Positions 19,636 to 56,234 of a DNA stretch of 64,000 nt are shown here, piece after piece. The position numbers were made by a program, and so were the translations under genes. Below the pieces are notes generated by a model. The model was not told the origin of the DNA. It worked only from the letters and a program-made list of their open reading frames with translations, and searched no databases. This DNA is from a virus. Its lineage: Duplodnaviria; Heunggongvirae; Uroviricota; Caudoviricetes. Positions within the stretch are counted from its first letter, which is position 1, and each line of letters begins with the position of its first letter. The stretch lies in the IMG/VR virus record IMGVR_UViG_3300002834_000024, positions 64,001 through 128,000 of that record. One strand, given 5' to 3'.

Positions 19636-19866
19636 TTATCTTTGACTATTATTATATCTATAAGTTATTCTTCCACGATTTAAGTCATATGGGGACATTT
19701 CAACTTTTACTTTATCACCAGTTAATATCTTTACATAAGATATTCGCATTTTTCCACTGATAGTACAAATAATGGGATGACCATTATCTAATTCAACCCT
19801 AAAATTTGCATTTCCAAGTGTTTCGGTAACTGTTCCATCTACTGTTATACAATTCTCTTTTGCCAT
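19636..19866 (-). CDS. infA: Translation initiation factor IF-1
   Basis: [30 protein letters not shown]...ISGKMR...[24 protein letters not shown]. Confidence 0.97.
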
Positions 19867-19867
19867 T

Positions 19868-20833
19868 TTATTTTATAATTTTAAATTTCAATTGGTAATA
19901 CTTGTAAGTATATCCATTAATTAAACCATTATCATTACTTGTTCCAACATATCTATATGTATCCCCAATACTTGGTATATATAAGTTTGTTCCTATTTTA
20001 ATACAATTATACCCTCTCCATTGATAAATCTCAAAACCAGTACCACTGTTAACAATTCGTTTGACTTGTTCACCAGTTAAAGGTTGAGTTACAACATATC
20101 CAACAGATACTTGTGCATTAGTATTAAGATATACATAACCATCTATAATACCATTATCTTTTCTTTGGCGAACATCTGTAACAACAGTTAAAACTAAATT
20201 ACTTCTCATATACTCACCTTTGGTATTATGATATGATTGAATTATCATTTGATAATCATCCCCATCTCTATAATTCACACCATTTAAGTCAATAGAAGTT
20301 ACAAAATTCAACTTATTATATGGATTACTGGATGTAATGATATTGTATGGTGTTCGGATTGTATATGAACGTAACAAGTATGAACCACCATACCCGCTTT
20401 CAATCCAATTTGTTTTTTCAACAAAATTCATTTTACTAAAAGTCCATTTATCACCTTTTTGTAAACCACACATAATCATTTCATACTTGTCATAAGTTAC
20501 AAAACCTGGTAGATTAACAACCTCTTGATTTTTGGTAAACAATGCTTCAACTGGTTCATCAAAAAATGGAATAGTGTTTTTACCTTGCATTGTAAAAATT
20601 TGTTCTAATTGCATTGTAAATCCATTCGCAAAGTATGATTCCAATGTGGATAACTTACTACCATCAGATTTTGTTTGTGTGGTGGTTTTTGTTTCGGTTG
20701 GACAGTTTTTCTCACATTTTAACTCATCATCTATCCATTCAGGAACACATGAATTAAAAGAGATTAATAATAGAGCTAAAAGAGTTAGCCCTATTATTAA
20801 CCATACAGTTTTTTTTATTATTTTAGTTTTCAT
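19868..20833 (-). CDS. Putative lipoprotein (start re-assigned to ATG 20833)
   Basis: Basic N-region, hydrophobic stretch and FNS-C lipobox-like site. Confidence 0.55.
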
Positions 20834-20834
20834 G

Positions 20835-21344
20835 TTAAAAGCACATACCAAGACTTACATAAAAACCAACTCGATTTAACTTTAAATCGCCAAAACTTTT
20901 TTGATAATAAAGTGTTGGTTCGATAAAAATATCATTTGTTAAACAAAATGTATAACCTAAATCAATCATTGAACTATTTTCATATGATTTATAGTTATCA
21001 TAAGTAATACCTTGATACCATAATCCAACAAACCACCAATTGACCCATTTTCTAACTCCAATGGTATAATCTAATGTTTTGGTTTTTGTACCATCAAGAT
21101 TTTCATAGCCGAAATTTAAACCTACTGTTGGGACAATGTTGTTTGCAACAGCGTAATAACCCATCAACCCCAATGATAAATTATCTGTTTTATCATTGAA
21201 AATACCTTTTGATATATCCAAACTGTTGAAGTTTGCAATAATACCCTTAGATCCTTTTGGATTTGCAATAATTGGTTCTTGACCAAAAGAATACACACTA
21301 ATTAACATTAAAGTTAATACCATCAAAAATTTTACTTTTCTCAT
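20835..21344 (-). CDS. Small outer-membrane beta-barrel protein
   Basis: Signal peptide, alternating aromatic beta-strands, DIFIEP motif, terminal Phe (GFYVSLGMCF). Confidence 0.75.
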   Translation of the reverse strand: MRKVKFLMVLTLMLISVYSFGQEPIIANPKGSKGIIANFNSLDISKGIFNDKTDNLSLGLMGYYAVANNIVPTVGLNFGYENLDGTKTKTLDYTIGVRKWVNWWFVGLWYQGITYDNYKSYENSSMIDLGYTFCLTNDIFIEPTLYYQKSFGDLKLNRVGFYVSLGMCF

Positions 21345-21376: not shown

Positions 21377-22282
21377 CTAACATATTTCATTCATAATATT
21401 ATCAATATAATCCACATAATTATGGAACTCAATTGTTTTTCGGATAGATGGTGTTCTTCTATCGAAATTTATGTCTATCACTTTGTGAATTGTACATGGA
21501 TTTGCGGTTAAAATATAGATTCTATTTGACATATATACATTTTCTTCAATGTTATGTCCAACATTCACAAATGTTCTGTTGAAATCTGTATGATTATAAC
21601 ATAAATTAACCAATGTATCCTGTAATTCTCTTTTCATTTTAATATCCAAACCTGAACTTGCTTCATCAAGTAGCAATATTTTGCTATTACAATTCAATGA
21701 CCTTGCAATAGCAACCCTTTGTTTTTGTCCACCCGATAATTGGTTTGGATATTTGTACGCATGTTGTTCCAATCCAACCAGTTTCAACATCTGCATGGTA
21801 CGTTCTTTTCTTTCTTTTTTTGAAACCCCATATAGTTCCAGTGGAATAGCAACATTATCAAATACATTTCGCCAAGGGTAACTACTGTAATTTTGAAAAA
21901 TTAATGGAACTGATTGATCTCTTTTTAAATCCATTCCATCTATTTGTACTTTTCCACTATCGGGTTCTATTAACCCAGCAATAAGATTTAGGATTGTACT
22001 TTTACCGCACCCAGATTGTCCCATTAAAGAAATAAATTGGGATTGATTCACAAAATCTTGAATTTTAAAATTAAAATTTTGAAAAACTGTATTTTTAGTT
22101 GTTGGTGTTTTAAATGTAAGACTAATATTATCAAGAGTGATTATATCTTGTCCCTCATTTACATTTGATTCTTCCAATACAGTTTCGGAAATATTAATAA
22201 TAGGTTTAATTTTTTCTTGAATATCATTCGGATTCGTATCAACAATTGGTTGTTGTTTAATTAAATCTTTGAAGCCAGCCAT
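21377..22282 (-). CDS. ABC transporter ATP-binding subunit (NitT/TauT-like)
   Basis: GQSGCGKST, LSGGQKQRVAIAR, ILLLDE, H-loop VGH. Confidence 0.95.
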   Translation of the reverse strand: MAGFKDLIKQQPIVDTNPNDIQEKIKPIINISETVLEESNVNEGQDIITLDNISLTFKTPTTKNTVFQNFNFKIQDFVNQSQFISLMGQSGCGKSTILNLIAGLIEPDSGKVQIDGMDLKRDQSVPLIFQNYSSYPWRNVFDNVAIPLELYGVSKKERKERTMQMLKLVGLEQHAYKYPNQLSGGQKQRVAIARSLNCNSKILLLDEASSGLDIKMKRELQDTLVNLCYNHTDFNRTFVNVGHNIEENVYMSNRIYILTANPCTIHKVIDINFDRRTPSIRKTIEFHNYVDYIDNIMNEIC

Positions 22283-22287
22283 TGTAA

Positions 22288-23223
22288 TTATTTTTTATCA
22301 GTTAGAAATAATGTTTTTAATTTGCTCCCAGAAATCCATTTTTTAATTAATGCTGGAAATTTTTTAATTGTTGTAAATAATCTACGGACTATTGACATTT
22401 TTTCATACTTGTATGGAAATAAGAATTTATCTATTTCTACTAATAAAAAGTTTTGAAATAACCCAATAGAAATTATAGAAAACAATACACCATAATATTC
22501 AGCCATAAGACCTTGCCTTCTCAATAGATGTAATAATCCACCAAGACCACCCTTATGATTTAATAATTCGATTATGATAATGTATGTGTATGATATTGCA
22601 GTAAGGATTATAATATCGCTGAAAACTCGACCCATTACATAAGGAAAATAAACTTTGGTAAATTTTTGATAATTATTTGCACCTAATGTCTTTATAGTTT
22701 GTAAATAGACAAAATCTTTGTCATTTTTAGGATTTTGTAAATCTTCAATTTTTTGAATAACAGCAGGTAATAATGACATAAAAATAGCAAATGCTAAAAA
22801 AGATGCTTTCATTCCAATACCAAGACCAAATGCTGTCATAAATATCCCAGTAATAGCAGGTGGCGGTAAATATCGCATTGCATCAGTGTATTTCTGAAAC
22901 ATTGATTTTGGTAATGGAAAAATACCTATCAAAAAACCTAATGGTAACGCAAATATTATAGCAAAAAAATATCCCCATAGATTTATTTTAACAGAATACC
23001 ATGCTTCCTTAGGTAAATTATGTTCAGTAAATAAATTACCAAAATTTTGAAATACTGAAATTGGGGATGGTAATATTTTTGGTGATATTAATGTACCATT
23101 TAATGTTACAAAATGCCATATTAACAATAGTACAAATGCACCAAAAATAGTGAATATCATATTTGTTTTATTATCTATGATACCTCCAAATTTTAATAAT
23201 TCTTTATAATTACTTTTTGCCAT
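22288..23223 (-). CDS. ABC transporter permease (NitT/TauT-like)
   Basis: ILPSPISV, multiple transmembrane segments, RYLPPPA, EAA-like TIKTLGA. Confidence 0.92.
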   Translation of the reverse strand: MAKSNYKELLKFGGIIDNKTNMIFTIFGAFVLLLIWHFVTLNGTLISPKILPSPISVFQNFGNLFTEHNLPKEAWYSVKINLWGYFFAIIFALPLGFLIGIFPLPKSMFQKYTDAMRYLPPPAITGIFMTAFGLGIGMKASFLAFAIFMSLLPAVIQKIEDLQNPKNDKDFVYLQTIKTLGANNYQKFTKVYFPYVMGRVFSDIIILTAISYTYIIIIELLNHKGGLGGLLHLLRRQGLMAEYYGVLFSIISIGLFQNFLLVEIDKFLFPYKYEKMSIVRRLFTTIKKFPALIKKWISGSKLKTLFLTDKK

Positions 23224-23246
23224 AAAATTGTCTTTTATATTTTATA

Positions 23247-23290
23247 CAAAGATAATAATTGTTTTATATACACAATAGATACTGGATGTT
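23247..23290 (-). promoter_or_regulatory. Promoter: AACATCCAGT box + 26 nt + TATCTTTG (-7)
   Basis: One of seven copies of the same architecture. Confidence 0.75.
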
Positions 23291-23292
23291 AA

Positions 23293-23333
23293 AAAAACTC
23301 TAGAAATATTTCAAAAACATTTCTAGAGTTTTT
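23293..23333 (-). terminator. 15-bp perfect hairpin after the SBP gene
   Basis: aaaaactctagaaat / atttctagagttttt. Confidence 0.75.
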
Positions 23334-23354
23334 ACATCATATCACTAATAGATA

Positions 23355-24974
23355 TTATTCAGCAACAAGTTGAAAATCTGTTGTACGATAATTCTTATCT
23401 GGTCCAACACTTCCTGCTGCAATAGCATGTTTACTACCATTTCCTTCAACAATAAATCTTGTTTTAGGGAAACCATGTTGTTTTACAAGATAATCAACAA
23501 CTGATTGCGCACGTCTTTTTGATAAATCTCGATTTAGTTCTGCAGAACCTGTATTATCCGTATTTCCTTCGACCCTAATATAATTTGTGAAATTTTTAGC
23601 AATTTCAACAAATTCGCTATCAATAATATATTGTGCATCACTATTCAAAATAGCACTATTTGTTGCAAATTCAATTACTACCTTTTTATTAGACAAGGCG
23701 GGTGCAGCAATTTCTCTTGCAGTTGGTGCTACATAACTTCTATCTTTTTCAGCACTTTGATCATTTGTTAATTTATGGTTATCCATAAGATATTCAATTA
23801 TTGAAGCATCCATAGTTCTTCCCCATCTTACAGGGCTTTTAACCATACCAACTTCTTCGCTACTATATATTCTTGCCATTCTTGAATATAATTGTTCGTA
23901 TGTAATTCCGTTATAATTCGGATTCAATCCAAAGAAATTAATATTATCGCCAAGTGTTGAAAATCTAAGAACATCTCTTATACTTGAAACAATCTTTCCA
24001 TTATTATCCAATTCACAAATAAATTCTTTATCAACGCCAAATCCTTTTGCAAATGTTTCTGCTGCACCTTTCAAAAATACATCATTTGTTGCTAATTCGA
24101 CATTTGCGTATAAAATAGCTTCTGTTAATTTGACAATTTTTTCCCTATTCTTTTCGATATAACTTTCTTTTGCAAGATAAGCATCTACAATAAGATTAGG
24201 TGCTTGCTTTGTTGAAAAAAATACTTTTGCGCCAGGTATGTTTTTAACCAAATCAACATCATCAGGACTATAAACAAGAGCTGCATTTGCTTGACGAGAT
24301 TTCATTACTTCTGCTGCATCCATACCATTATCAACTTTTGTTAGTTTTCCATCAACAAACCATTCCGCTAAAGTAACATCATTTCCTTTTGCACCACTTG
24401 TTGCCAATACTTCAAGTAAAAGGGAATGACCAGCTTGTCCAAGAGGAAATGCTACTTTTTTCTTTAATAAATCAGCAACACTGTTTATTGTTGCATCAAC
24501 AACCAAAGCATCAGCACCACGAGAACGATTAGCATCAACAAATGCTCTTGTATCTAACATAACACTACCCTCGCCCATCTCAATCGGGCGTACATCAATT
24601 GTCCCAAAAATAACATCAATAAGGCCAGCTTTAAATGCCTCTCTATCATTTTCTACAATTTCAAATTTCAACTTAATACCAAACCTTTTGTAAATTTCTG
24701 AATTTTCATTTGGTTCCATTCCACCATTCAAATACACAATCGGTGCATGACCACCATATGTATCTACACCAATCGTAATATAGTCTTTCGACCCACTTTT
24801 ATTTGTAAAAAGGTTACTTAAAAAATTGCTTGATTTTTCTTTATCAACAGCTTGTGTTACCTCTTTATTTTCTCCTGGCAGTTCTACTTTACCACCACCC
24901 ATTTTAATTAGCATAAACGCTATACCAAGCACTGCTAACGTAATTCCAAAAATTTTTACCCACGGTCTTACCAT
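23355..24974 (-). CDS. ABC substrate-binding protein (NMT1/SsuA-like) fused to an OmpA C-terminal domain
   Basis: N-terminal membrane anchor; SRGADALVV...INSVADL..KKVAF; C-terminal IRVEGNTDNTG...NRDLSKRRAQSVVDYL...YRTTDF. Confidence 0.85.
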   Translation of the reverse strand: MVRPWVKIFGITLAVLGIAFMLIKMGGGKVELPGENKEVTQAVDKEKSSNFLSNLFTNKSGSKDYITIGVDTYGGHAPIVYLNGGMEPNENSEIYKRFGIKLKFEIVENDREAFKAGLIDVIFGTIDVRPIEMGEGSVMLDTRAFVDANRSRGADALVVDATINSVADLLKKKVAFPLGQAGHSLLLEVLATSGAKGNDVTLAEWFVDGKLTKVDNGMDAAEVMKSRQANAALVYSPDDVDLVKNIPGAKVFFSTKQAPNLIVDAYLAKESYIEKNREKIVKLTEAILYANVELATNDVFLKGAAETFAKGFGVDKEFICELDNNGKIVSSIRDVLRFSTLGDNINFFGLNPNYNGITYEQLYSRMARIYSSEEVGMVKSPVRWGRTMDASIIEYLMDNHKLTNDQSAEKDRSYVAPTAREIAAPALSNKKVVIEFATNSAILNSDAQYIIDSEFVEIAKNFTNYIRVEGNTDNTGSAELNRDLSKRRAQSVVDYLVKQHGFPKTRFIVEGNGSKHAIAAGSVGPDKNYRTTDFQLVAE

Positions 24975-25011
24975 AATTTTAAACTTTAATAATGATTAAT
25001 ATTTTTTTTAT

Positions 25012-26118
25012 TTAATTTTGTTCATCAGGAAAAAATCTACTTTTTAACCTTTTTGGCTGTTCTTCATTTGCATAATTAGCCAAAATTGGTTCAGCTTCTC
25101 TACGAGATTGAAATACTTCAATATATGGAGTGTTTATATGATTTTCTATCATTTTAACACTGTTATCACCAAAGTTTTCAAACATTCCATCCAAACCATA
25201 TTGGTCATACTTTGAAATAATTTCACTTGCTTGTTTGGATGTTAGAAGTTTATTCATGTCATACTGATCCATTAAACCGCCAGCAGAATCTATAATAAAT
25301 TCCATTTCACCAATCTTATTGCTCATATCTTTCGCCATGAACTCCATAGCATCCATGAATAATGCAGCCTCATCAGGATCACCTTTTATTACAGACATGA
25401 TACTCTTAAATGTGGCATGTTGTAATTTTATCTGGTCATATTGTTCTGTTCTTATTTCTACCTGAAACTCGGTATCCTGAACAGTAAGATCAGCCATCTC
25501 ATACAATTTGGTTAAAATATCTTGCCATTTATTAGATTGTGCGAGATTTTCTTTGTAAGTATTTATGAGATCAGATAAACTTTTAACCTTATTACCAACA
25601 ACTTGGGCTGCCTTTTCTTTATCTTTACCCTGTGCGATATAGATTTTATATTCCTGAATAGCCGTATCAAATTCGTCAGATCGTTGTTTAAGTTTTCGTT
25701 CAATTTCCTTAATTGAACCTTTTAACTTTCCAAGAAGTTGTTGAATTTTAGTCATCTTTTCTTTTAAAATTACAATTCTTCGTTTTACAATAGCAACAGG
25801 ATTTGTCTGAACAAAAACACCCCACAATTTTCTCATAAACATGAAATAACTAACAGATACCATTCGTCTAATATCCTTATTAGTTAATAACCACAAAATA
25901 CCTGCAATTGCCACACATAATCCAATTAAGGTTAGCAAATTTGATGCAAGTGTTATCAGCCATGGTAAAATTTTATATAATACCATTAAGGCACCAGCTC
26001 CAAGCAAACCAGCAAAAACCATTCCGAGTTTGCCACCTGGTTTTTCCCAATTGCTCATCTTGATTTTATTGTTTGCAATGGGATTTGAAGAAAGATTAAA
26101 AGGAACTAAATCATTCAT
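25012..26118 (-). CDS. Membrane-anchored coiled-coil protein (PspA/IM30-like architecture)
   Basis: Two N-terminal transmembrane helices followed by long heptad-rich helices. Confidence 0.5.
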   Translation of the reverse strand: MNDLVPFNLSSNPIANNKIKMSNWEKPGGKLGMVFAGLLGAGALMVLYKILPWLITLASNLLTLIGLCVAIAGILWLLTNKDIRRMVSVSYFMFMRKLWGVFVQTNPVAIVKRRIVILKEKMTKIQQLLGKLKGSIKEIERKLKQRSDEFDTAIQEYKIYIAQGKDKEKAAQVVGNKVKSLSDLINTYKENLAQSNKWQDILTKLYEMADLTVQDTEFQVEIRTEQYDQIKLQHATFKSIMSVIKGDPDEAALFMDAMEFMAKDMSNKIGEMEFIIDSAGGLMDQYDMNKLLTSKQASEIISKYDQYGLDGMFENFGDNSVKMIENHINTPYIEVFQSRREAEPILANYANEEQPKRLKSRFFPDEQN

Positions 26119-26142
26119 TTGTTTTAATTTTTATTGTTTATA

Positions 26143-26865
26143 CTAATTTACATTTGCTAATGCGTTTAAAATGTTATTTTTATCACCATTCAATAAATCT
26201 TTCATATGATTAATAGTGGCAATCAAATCACTTTCTTTTTTTCTAATATTGACAGATGCACTTTCAACATTATTCTTTATTGTGGAAACTTCTGTTTCTT
26301 TATTTGAAATTTTGGCAAAGATTTCTTCATGTTGTTTTTTTAATTCTATAATTTCATTGTTAATTTCTTGTATTTTGGACAAAGGTATATCAACTTTAAG
26401 TCTTTTTTCTTCTGAAATAATATTCTTTTCAGCATCTTTTTGTTCCATAATAAGTTTCAAGTAATGATCAACTGAACTACTAATAACTGCTTTGTTAAAA
26501 CTTGGAGAATGTGATTTGAGATTAATATAAGCCGCTTTAATTAATTCTTCTTCTTTTGCAGAGGTTAAAATTTCTCTTAATTGATCTACATTCTTTTTTA
26601 AATCCAAATAATTGGTTGTTTTTAACGCACTTTCATCAATTATTTTACATAATTCAGTAAAAATATTCTCATCAATTTCACCATTTACATTAGATGGTGG
26701 TTGAATATTATCATCCACAGGTTGTTTCTTTCTTGGTTGAGAAACAAATTGTGGCTGGTACGCAATTGTAGTATTAACAGGAATACTACTTTCAGTTTTC
26801 TTGGGATTTGATGTTGCTTTATCATCAACAAAAACTGCATTTTTTAAAAATTGACCTAAACCCAT
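26143..26865 (-). CDS. Coiled-coil hypothetical protein, first gene of the transporter operon
   Basis: C-terminal heptad repeats; co-oriented and tightly linked. Confidence 0.55.
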   Translation of the reverse strand: MGLGQFLKNAVFVDDKATSNPKKTESSIPVNTTIAYQPQFVSQPRKKQPVDDNIQPPSNVNGEIDENIFTELCKIIDESALKTTNYLDLKKNVDQLREILTSAKEEELIKAAYINLKSHSPSFNKAVISSSVDHYLKLIMEQKDAEKNIISEEKRLKVDIPLSKIQEINNEIIELKKQHEEIFAKISNKETEVSTIKNNVESASVNIRKKESDLIATINHMKDLLNGDKNNILNALANVN

Positions 26866-27779: not shown

Positions 27780-27822
27780 CAAAAATAATAAAACTTAAAT
27801 AAAAAATATTTTACTGGATGTT
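27780..27822 (-). promoter_or_regulatory. Promoter: AACATCCAGT + 25 nt + TATTTTTG
   Basis: Conserved architecture. Confidence 0.75.
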
Positions 27823-29938: not shown

Positions 29939-29981
29939 CAAAGGTACAAAAATTTAAGTTATATAATTTTTACTGGATGTT
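29939..29981 (-). promoter_or_regulatory. Promoter: AACATCCAGT + 25 nt + TACCTTTG
   Basis: Conserved architecture; overlaps the listed TTG start, which supports the downstream ATG. Confidence 0.75.
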
Positions 29982-45500: not shown

Positions 45501-45543
45501 CAAAAATATAACAAGTTTTTTAAAAAACCAAATACTGGATGTT
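45501..45543 (-). promoter_or_regulatory. Promoter: AACATCCAGT box, TTTG (-33), 20 nt, TATTTTTG (-7)
   Basis: Full Bacteroidota -33/-7 consensus plus the conserved upstream box. Confidence 0.82.
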
Positions 45544-56191: not shown

Positions 56192-56234
56192 AACATCCAG
56201 TAGAATTTATCTTATTTAAAATTATGTATTTTTG
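56192..56234 (+). promoter_or_regulatory. Promoter: AACATCCAGT + 25 nt + TATTTTTG
   Basis: The only plus-strand copy of the conserved architecture. Confidence 0.78.

Follow-up and report, generated by a model that had tools for sequence, protein, structure and literature searches.

A five-gene cluster encoding a predicted membrane-anchored PspA homolog and an ABC importer in huge phages and Bacteroidota chromosomes

The window analyzed here, a 64,000-nt stretch of viral DNA (bases 64001–128000 of the 274.8-kb IMG/VR contig IMGVR_UViG_3300002834_000024, estimated completeness 74%), carries a module of five consecutive genes. In the order of the genes, their products are a coiled-coil protein (cc240), a transmembrane (TM) protein resembling PspA (TM-PspA), a solute-binding protein (SBP) fused to an OmpA domain (SBP-OmpA), and the permease and ATPase of an ATP-binding cassette (ABC) importer. 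We found that the grouping of these five genes is far beyond chance, and that in this module the phage appears to carry its own copy of an envelope operon of bacteria, which is found mainly in Bacteroidota. Domain types and gene linkage make it somewhat probable that the module serves to maintain or remodel the inner membrane of the host over a long infection, in a manner coupled to solute transport.

All five open reading frames (ORFs; 26865–21377, minus strand) were intact under translation table 11 at the coordinates given in an earlier note on this DNA, and they were separated by gaps of 24, 37, 131 and 5 nt. That note had described an intact ABC importer with an SBP-OmpA fusion, preceded by two coiled-coil proteins of which one is membrane-anchored, and this anatomy was borne out by the ORFs, the domain matches and the hydropathy profiles. 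The GC content of the window is approximately 29%, and two termite-gut metagenome runs carry DNA nearly identical to it.

Linkage of the five genes in phages and bacteria

We compared the 5.5-kb module region with GenBank phages by megablast and obtained zero matches, and a search for related loci with the single TM-PspA protein as the query also found nothing; the SBP-OmpA alignment was used instead. A tblastn search with SBP-OmpA matched all Lak megaphage records (43–45% identity), the 735-kb uncultured phages LR756501 and LR756503, LR756511 and Bacillus phage G. A scan of IMG/VR with the SBP-OmpA alignment yielded 47 loci, mostly on contigs of 100–676 kb, which together with five GenBank loci gave 52 viral loci. 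The genes for the coiled-coil protein, TM-PspA, SBP-OmpA, the permease and the ATPase were colinear in 46 of these 52 huge-phage loci, and in Lak-C1 and Lak-B5 all five genes were syntenic with the module of the window. The earlier note had named a failure of the two coiled-coil genes to accompany the ABC genes elsewhere as the outcome adverse to its reading; our gene-neighborhood survey clearly found the opposite, both in phages and in most of the 48 cellular loci described below. Dozens of very large phages, among them the Lak megaphages found in human and animal guts, keep the module unbroken and in the same gene order, which suggests that giant phages with long cycles repeatedly need to tend the inner membrane of the host.

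Dysgonomonas chromosomes carry these five genes in an identical order, flanked by SusC-like receptors, a hybrid two-component system, seryl-tRNA synthetase and glycoside hydrolases. We rejected the possibility that these copies are prophage or mis-binned phage DNA, because the flanks are ordinary chromosomal genes; some other rows labeled cellular, derived from metagenome-assembled genomes (MAGs) on short contigs (e.g. L113, L084 and L102), could be mis-binned phage. A rhomboid protease gene lies directly after the Dysgonomonas operon (L007, 13365–13925; L010, 5964–6530), an arrangement seen in two of the 48 cellular loci and in no viral locus. When one genome per species was scanned, full-length SBP-OmpA fusions were present in Niastella vici and Aquimarina rubra, on contigs of 0.7–2.2 Mb, and in many MAGs of Saprospiraceae, Lewinellaceae and Chitinophagales, with a few in Spirochaetia, Patescibacteria, Acidobacteriota and Myxococcota MAGs. 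Among the 48 cellular loci with SBP-OmpA, TM-PspA was adjacent in 38, the coiled-coil gene in 35, and the permease and ATPase genes in 35. To judge from these comparisons, the module is a host-type operon common to Bacteroidota chromosomes and not a phage invention. Since the operon occurs in cultivable Bacteroidota (Dysgonomonas, N. vici and A. rubra), its function is approachable at the bench without phage culture.

The linkage within the operon is not uniform. Seven to eight loci of Saprospirales, Lewinellaceae and Sphingobacteriales contained the coiled-coil gene, TM-PspA and SBP-OmpA without permease or ATPase genes within 7 kb (L085, L090, L096, L097, L101, L107, L116 and L120), and many genomes retain the coiled-coil gene with TM-PspA alone, or TM-PspA alone. 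Such three-gene units and reduced loci indicate that the conserved core is probably the ESCRT-III pair, that is, the coiled-coil protein and TM-PspA, often accompanied by SBP-OmpA. The wall-anchored binding protein appears to be tied to this pair at least as tightly as to the transporter.

Other arrangements were observed among the phages. Bacillus phage G (L003, gp243–gp250), which has a Gram-positive host, combines, in a permuted arrangement, two tandem SBP-OmpA paralogs with the permease, the ATPase and three unknown genes; when gp246 and gp247 were compared with the coiled-coil protein and TM-PspA by hhalign, the probabilities were 0.3% and 9%, and kinship was not demonstrated. The 595-kb phage LR756511 (L004) has a variant with two OmpA-domain proteins, a VWA-domain protein and several unknown genes, followed by the permease and ATPase, and no matches to the coiled-coil protein or TM-PspA were obtained in this cluster. 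In loci of the Lak-B type (L044, L049, L050 and L005), a gap of approximately 1.4 kb separates the SBP-OmpA and permease genes, an apparent insertion inside the module.

The tree built from 73 dereplicated SBP-OmpA sequences showed phage and cellular rows interleaved, with at least eight label changes forced by well-supported branches. The SBP-OmpA of the window has a long branch, and its clade comprises 16 phage rows and 3 cellular rows; within this clade, the Dysgonomonas chromosomal copies nest among the phage copies. This interleaving indicates that SBP-OmpA has probably been exchanged repeatedly between Bacteroidota and their large phages; here too, some of the MAG rows from short contigs may be mis-binned phage.

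Frequent exchange between phages and cells, together with the enrichment of the module in huge phages, would also be expected of a conflict module, in which the PspA-like system neutralizes membrane-depolarizing abortive-infection effectors, or excludes superinfecting phages through a change in the envelope. PspA-family proteins (PspA, LiaH and Vipp1) do counter loss of the proton-motive force. However, the same operon stands in ordinary chromosomal contexts in Dysgonomonas, Niastella and Aquimarina, and not in defense islands; no defense or anti-defense family was matched. We consider it quite improbable. The idea of an envelope sensing or repair system, raised in the earlier note, is consistent with the gene linkage, and the role against abortive-infection systems that the note attached to it is pure speculation.

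TM-PspA, cc240 and SBP-OmpA

On the evidence of sequence profiles and a predicted structure, TM-PspA is most aptly classed as a divergent protein with a TM anchor that belongs to the PspA/IM30 branch within the ESCRT-III superfamily. Hydropathy and an AlphaFold2 (AF2) model (pLDDT 77.6) place two N-terminal TM helices at approximately residues 29–58 and 61–79, followed by a cytoplasmic α0–α5 PspA fold (81–317) and a disordered tail. The helices of the model (81–105, 107–162, 165–244, 250–277 and 283–317) follow the ESCRT-III order, including the long α1/α2-3 hairpin. An exhaustive HMMER search defined a family of 805 representatives at 50% clustering, approximately 340 residues long and with full-length matches. 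In an alignment of 62 family members (A1), PspA_IM30 (PF04012) was matched by 13 members (E ≤ 0.01, best 7e-7), and Pfam families other than PspA_IM30 did not recur.

Profile and fold comparisons pointed in the same direction. Against 301 Bacteroidota genomes, the A1 profile gave strong full-length matches in approximately 11 genomes and weak matches to ORFs of approximately 260 residues in approximately 24 genomes; two of these weakly matching ORFs were checked, and both were bona fide PspA (PF04012 at 66 and 73 bits). An hhalign comparison of the A1 profile with one of these two PspA proteins gave a probability of 95.3% (E 2e-8), aligning residues 87–200 of the query with residues 3–116 of PspA in register with the α0/α1 (E/D)P ('DP') motif, the position at which P107, the sole invariant residue of the family in A1, is located. 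When the TM-PspA model was searched with Foldseek, Vipp1 was the top match in the PDB (E 3.5e-4) and occupied 9 of the first 11 rows, and Vipp1, YjfJ, Mycobacterium tuberculosis PspA and LiaH led the Swiss-Prot matches; the E-values were modest, as is usual for helical hairpins. The PspA/ESCRT-III-like layout that the earlier note had ascribed to this protein is thus supported by the Pfam matches in the family, by hhalign and by the fold matches, and the structural comparison with PspA and Vipp1 that it had proposed returned Vipp1, PspA and LiaH among the best.

The product of the first gene, cc240, showed no TM segment by hydropathy. Its AF2 model (pLDDT 77.4) comprises an N-terminal amphipathic helix (3–12), a disordered linker (14–56), three short helices (66–119) and a long helix (125–236). 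The protein matched no Pfam or PHROG family, and its model had no fold match in the PDB and matched only unnamed or DUF5667 clusters in the AFDB. Close relatives were few by word search, and a hidden Markov model of cc240 relatives located homologs directly upstream of TM-PspA in Lak phages, Dysgonomonas and several other Bacteroidota. Across phage and cellular loci, these homologs adjoin TM-PspA whether or not ABC genes are there. We rejected the possibility that cc240 is a second PspA, as no PspA signal was obtained by Pfam or by fold (PDB and AFDB clusters); sequence and model together suggest a distinct family of coiled-coil partners that is not detectably PspA. A complex prediction for TM-PspA (81–320) with cc240 (60–240) gave a score of 0.00 in a run without controls, which speaks neither for nor against a contact.

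SBP-OmpA begins with a conserved cytoplasmic stub (VRPWVK) ahead of a signal-anchor TM segment at approximately residues 8–25, which is followed by a class II periplasmic binding domain of the NMT1/SsuA type and by a C-terminal OmpA-like domain (approximately 430–539). Both Pfam matches passed their cut-offs (NMT1, 28.6 bits; OmpA, 61 bits, against a cut-off of 27.2 for PF00691), and the fusion has a full-length family in PHROGs (phrog_25518, residues 8–530). The peptidoglycan-contact motifs of the OmpA domain are kept, with NTDNTG at 471 and NRDLSKRRAQSV at 481 (the TDxxG and NxxLSxxRAxxV patterns). In alignment A3, W5, D473 and R488 are invariant, the last two being residues of the OmpA-domain motifs. 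By domain match and motif content, the C-terminal domain can be classed as an OmpA-like peptidoglycan-binding domain (PF00691). The binding domain belongs to the NMT1/SsuA/Phosphonate-bd clan, and sequence relatives of the fusion in the PDB were weak only, namely SsuA, TauA and nitrate binders (E 3e-4 to 7e-3).

Transport, expression and the proposed role

The ATPase matched ABC_tran (107.8 bits, Pfam) and phrog_293 (E 5e-63), and carries an N-terminal extension of approximately 45 residues. The claim that all ATPase motifs are present proved correct, in that we located Walker A (GQSGCGKS, 88–95), the Q-loop (IFQ, 128–130), the signature (LSGGQ, 182–186), Walker B with its catalytic Glu and the D-loop (ILLLDEASSGLD, 202–213) and the H-loop (VGHN, 241–244). 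The permease has at least five hydrophobic segments and a diverged EAA loop (QTIKTLGANNYQKF...P); it matched phrog_6743 (E 3e-21), its score against BPD_transp_1 (25.3 bits) was just short of the cut-off of 26.4, and its orthologues in Dysgonomonas are annotated as BPD_transp_1.

We then considered the substrate. Among NCBIfam families, the nearest to the ATPase were SaoA (189.9, cut-off 360), NrtCD (177.7, cut-off 291.8) and TauB (171, cut-off 357), with PotA also near; those nearest to the permease were SaoP/TauC/PhnE-like, again under the cut-offs, and the SsuA_fam score was 34.8 compared with a curated cut-off of 163.5. No ABC subunit reached an equivalog, i.e. substrate-level, cut-off in NCBIfam, and the substrate of the unit, as judged by these comparisons, cannot be assigned from Pfam, NCBIfam or the PDB. 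The import of nicotinamide or a pyrimidine, which the earlier note had put forward, is without support, given that the SBP is only remotely near the SsuA, TauA and nitrate binders (E approximately 1e-3) and that no equivalog cut-off was reached.

Expression of the importer may be separate from that of the other genes. The 131-nt gap 3' of the SBP-OmpA gene contains a perfect hairpin and, behind it, a T-run (–27.1 kcal/mol; z = –8.2 compared with shuffles), which a generic terminator scan missed because the stem is AT-rich. Many diverged phage loci have a comparable hairpin and T-run in the corresponding place, and the hairpin of the window looks like an intrinsic terminator or an mRNA-stabilizing element. 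Directly after it lies AACATCCAGT, of which the window has six exact copies; at no more than one mismatch there were 20 copies compared with 6.2 expected, a number reached by 0 of 100 shuffles. The exact copies that we checked (at 23281, 27813 and 29972) were in gaps just upstream of gene starts, which makes AACATCCAGT a candidate phage promoter element. The hairpin and the promoter-like box would split the module into two units, a division newly proposed here, and could allow higher production of cc240, TM-PspA and SBP-OmpA than of the permease and ATPase. An excess of binding proteins over transporter subunits is known from bacterial ABC operons.

An importer with every ATPase motif intact, with a promoter-like box of its own for the permease/ATPase pair, and with subunits resembling TauBC, NrtBCD and SaoAP could be read as a set of plain auxiliary metabolic genes, in which the ABC trio imports a nutrient for phage replication and the coiled-coil genes are functionally unrelated neighbors. 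The clan of the binding domain and its nearest solved relatives (SsuA, TauA and a nitrate binder) fit this explanation, as do L062, L063 and phage G, in which ABC genes occur without a detectable coiled-coil gene or TM-PspA; the nutrient might then be sulfonate, taurine, nitrate, bicarbonate, phosphonate, a thiamine pyrimidine or nicotinamide. However, the colinearity of the coiled-coil gene and TM-PspA with the ABC genes extends, across deep divergence, over most of the phage and cellular loci. In addition, the binding protein is predicted to be TM-anchored and wall-tethered, which is unusual compared with a diffusible Gram-negative binding protein, and it remains with the coiled-coil gene and TM-PspA where the permease and ATPase are absent; the absence of ABC genes from some loci speaks against a simple nutrient importer. 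The NCBIfam scores indicate no substrate, and no link was found to the NAMPT genes located approximately 20 kb away. We judge that nutrient import alone, by any of these candidates, is an unlikely account of the module, and that the linkage pattern points to an envelope maintenance or remodeling unit more than to a plain nutrient importer.

PspA and other ESCRT-III proteins constitute the membrane-repair machinery of the cell; PspA, Vipp1 and LiaH polymerize at the cytoplasmic face of the membrane, sealing or remodeling it when it is stressed. From the identities, homologies and conserved linkage of the genes, we infer that the five proteins may act as one inner-membrane maintenance or remodeling unit coupled to ATP-driven transport. 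TM-PspA would be anchored in the host inner membrane by its two-helix hairpin, with the PspA domain on the cytoplasmic face, as predicted from the TM segments and domain types, and cc240 would be its dedicated cytoplasmic partner. SBP-OmpA would span the periplasm from its inner-membrane anchor to the peptidoglycan, and would deliver or sense a small solute for the permease and ATPase. The phage, whose genome exceeds 275 kb, might express this unit to keep the membrane of its host intact and energized through a long replication cycle.

Some of the results weigh against this proposal. The TM-PspA of the window itself has no Pfam match, as it falls below the PF04012 gathering threshold of 33.9 bits, and the orthologues that we scored (21.8–25.5 bits) are also under it. 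The intact and motif-complete ABC importer suggests that real solute uptake matters, and the hairpin and box would allow cc240, TM-PspA and SBP-OmpA to be expressed separately from the permease and ATPase. A two-domain AAA+ ATPase, present in 5 of the 48 cellular loci, gave no match in any of the 52 viral loci or in the 275-kb phage contig, which is approximately 74% complete; the turnover of a polymer in the phage versions is therefore without explanation.

The distribution of the AAA+ gene raises a further explanation, namely that the ABC unit works as a motor or a sensor and not as an importer, in which the wall-tethered domain reports the state of the envelope, ABC-driven ATP hydrolysis powers the assembly or turnover of the TM-PspA polymer, and the phage ABC ATPase replaces the Vps4-like AAA+ ATPase of some cellular versions. 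Such a function would agree with the double anchoring of the SBP, by a TM segment and at the peptidoglycan, with the conservation of its cytoplasmic N-terminal stub, including the invariant W5, and with the occurrence of the trio of cc, TM-PspA and SBP-OmpA without ABC genes in some genomes. However, the permease appears to have the ordinary type-I importer fold (BPD_transp_1) and not that of a mechanotransmission type such as FtsX or MacB, and the AAA+ gene is missing from most cellular operons too. We regard both the motor function and the replacement of the AAA+ ATPase as highly doubtful; if true, they would represent a new kind of ABC-driven membrane-remodeling machine, which reshapes or protects the host inner membrane for huge phages.

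Flanking genes and relation to known systems

The features of the module and its surroundings are summarized in Table 1. Directly after the ATPase gene, an ORF of 169 residues encodes a protein with a signal-peptide-like N-terminus and a terminal Phe, as in small outer-membrane β-barrels; it had no Pfam or PHROG match, and no homolog was found in the Lak, LR756501 or phage G loci. The next ORF, of 327 residues, has a single N-terminal hydrophobic segment and no matches, and a phage-encoded homolog of translation initiation factor IF-1 (Pfam eIF-1a, 93.9 bits) is also present.

Table 1. Positions in the window of the module genes, regulatory candidates and neighboring ORFs
Feature	Position	Strand	Description
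cc240	26143..26865	-	240 aa; predicted cytoplasmic coiled-coil partner
TM-PspA	25012..26118	-	368 aa; probable membrane-anchored PspA/IM30 (ESCRT-III superfamily) homolog
SBP-OmpA	23355..24974	-	539 aa; NMT1/SsuA-type binding domain and predicted OmpA peptidoglycan-binding domain
Hairpin and T-run	23291..23333	-	between the SBP-OmpA and permease genes
AACATCCAGT box	23281..23290	-	candidate phage promoter element, 58 nt upstream of the permease start
Probable type-I ABC importer permease	22288..23223	-	311 aa; BPD_transp_1-like fold
ABC ATPase	21377..22282	-	301 aa; ABC_tran, catalytic motifs all present
169-aa ORF	20835..21344	-	
327-aa ORF	19868..20851		
IF-1 homolog	19636..19866	-	
AACATCCAGT copies	23281-23290, 27813-27822, 29972-29981, 45534-45543	-	over-represented in the window
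AACATCCAGT copy	56192-56201	+	over-represented in the window

The earlier note knew of no characterized function for this combination of genes. As a statement of novelty this does not stand, since the operon class is already present in Ravi et al. (2024), and the association of phage PspA with ABC systems in Yuan and Chen (2026); our literature searches turned up only these two papers. By comparative genomics, Ravi et al. (mSystems, PMC11237479) described PspA together with a membrane-anchored divergent Snf7 and an AAA+ ATPase in operons that additionally contain genes for an ABC ATPase, for a permease and for a PBPB+OmpA protein, and inferred 'a link between membrane remodeling and solute transport'. 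Their example is OGG56892.1 of Candidatus Handelsmanbacteria, and an extra coiled-coil gene was noted in Bacteroidetes. Like this class, the phage module groups in one cluster a TM-anchored protein of the ESCRT-III superfamily, a fusion of a periplasmic binding protein with OmpA, a probable type-I permease and an ABC ATPase. However, the order of the genes differs from that of Ravi et al. (PspA, PBPB+OmpA, permease, ATPase, TM+Snf7, AAA+). The two-domain AAA+ ATPase of that class, in which the N-terminal copy is inactive, was not found in the approximately 74% of the phage genome covered by the contig. The phage module also has no separate soluble PspA, its first gene being not detectably PspA, and its TM protein scores as PspA/IM30, not as Snf7.

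Yuan and Chen (bioRxiv 10.64898/2026.10.24.761521) report 189 pspA genes in 184 huge phages, 15 of them beside complete ABC systems. As here, the genes next to a phage PspA encode an SBP, a permease and an ATPase; the genomes exceed 200 kb, and the authors read the arrangement as mitigation of membrane stress. The text that we consulted mentions no OmpA fusion, TM anchor of PspA, coiled-coil partner or shared cellular operon, and the 15 loci are at most possible members of the present family.

Compared with the classical systems, i.e. PspA with PspBC in Escherichia coli, LiaH with LiaI in Bacillus subtilis, and Vipp1/IM30, TM-PspA shares the predicted α0–α5 ESCRT-III fold, the long hairpin, the DP motif and, as predicted from its TM helices, recruitment to the inner membrane. 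Its anchor is fused, whereas the classical systems use separate PspB/C or LiaI proteins; furthermore, the phage module has no regulator of the PspF or LiaRS type, is linked to an ABC importer, and scores under the Pfam gathering score. With NitT/TauT importers (TauABC, SsuABC, NrtABCD and the ThiY type), the module shares an NMT1/SsuA-clan domain, a permease resembling BPD_transp_1 and a similar ATPase, but the phage binding protein differs from theirs in being TM-anchored and in bearing an OmpA domain, and it reaches no equivalog cut-off. Anchors of the MotB, PomB and Pal type likewise combine an N-terminal TM segment with a C-terminal OmpA-like domain that contains the TDxxG and NxxLSxxRA patterns; in contrast to these, the phage protein has a complete solute-binding domain of approximately 350 residues between its anchor and its OmpA domain.

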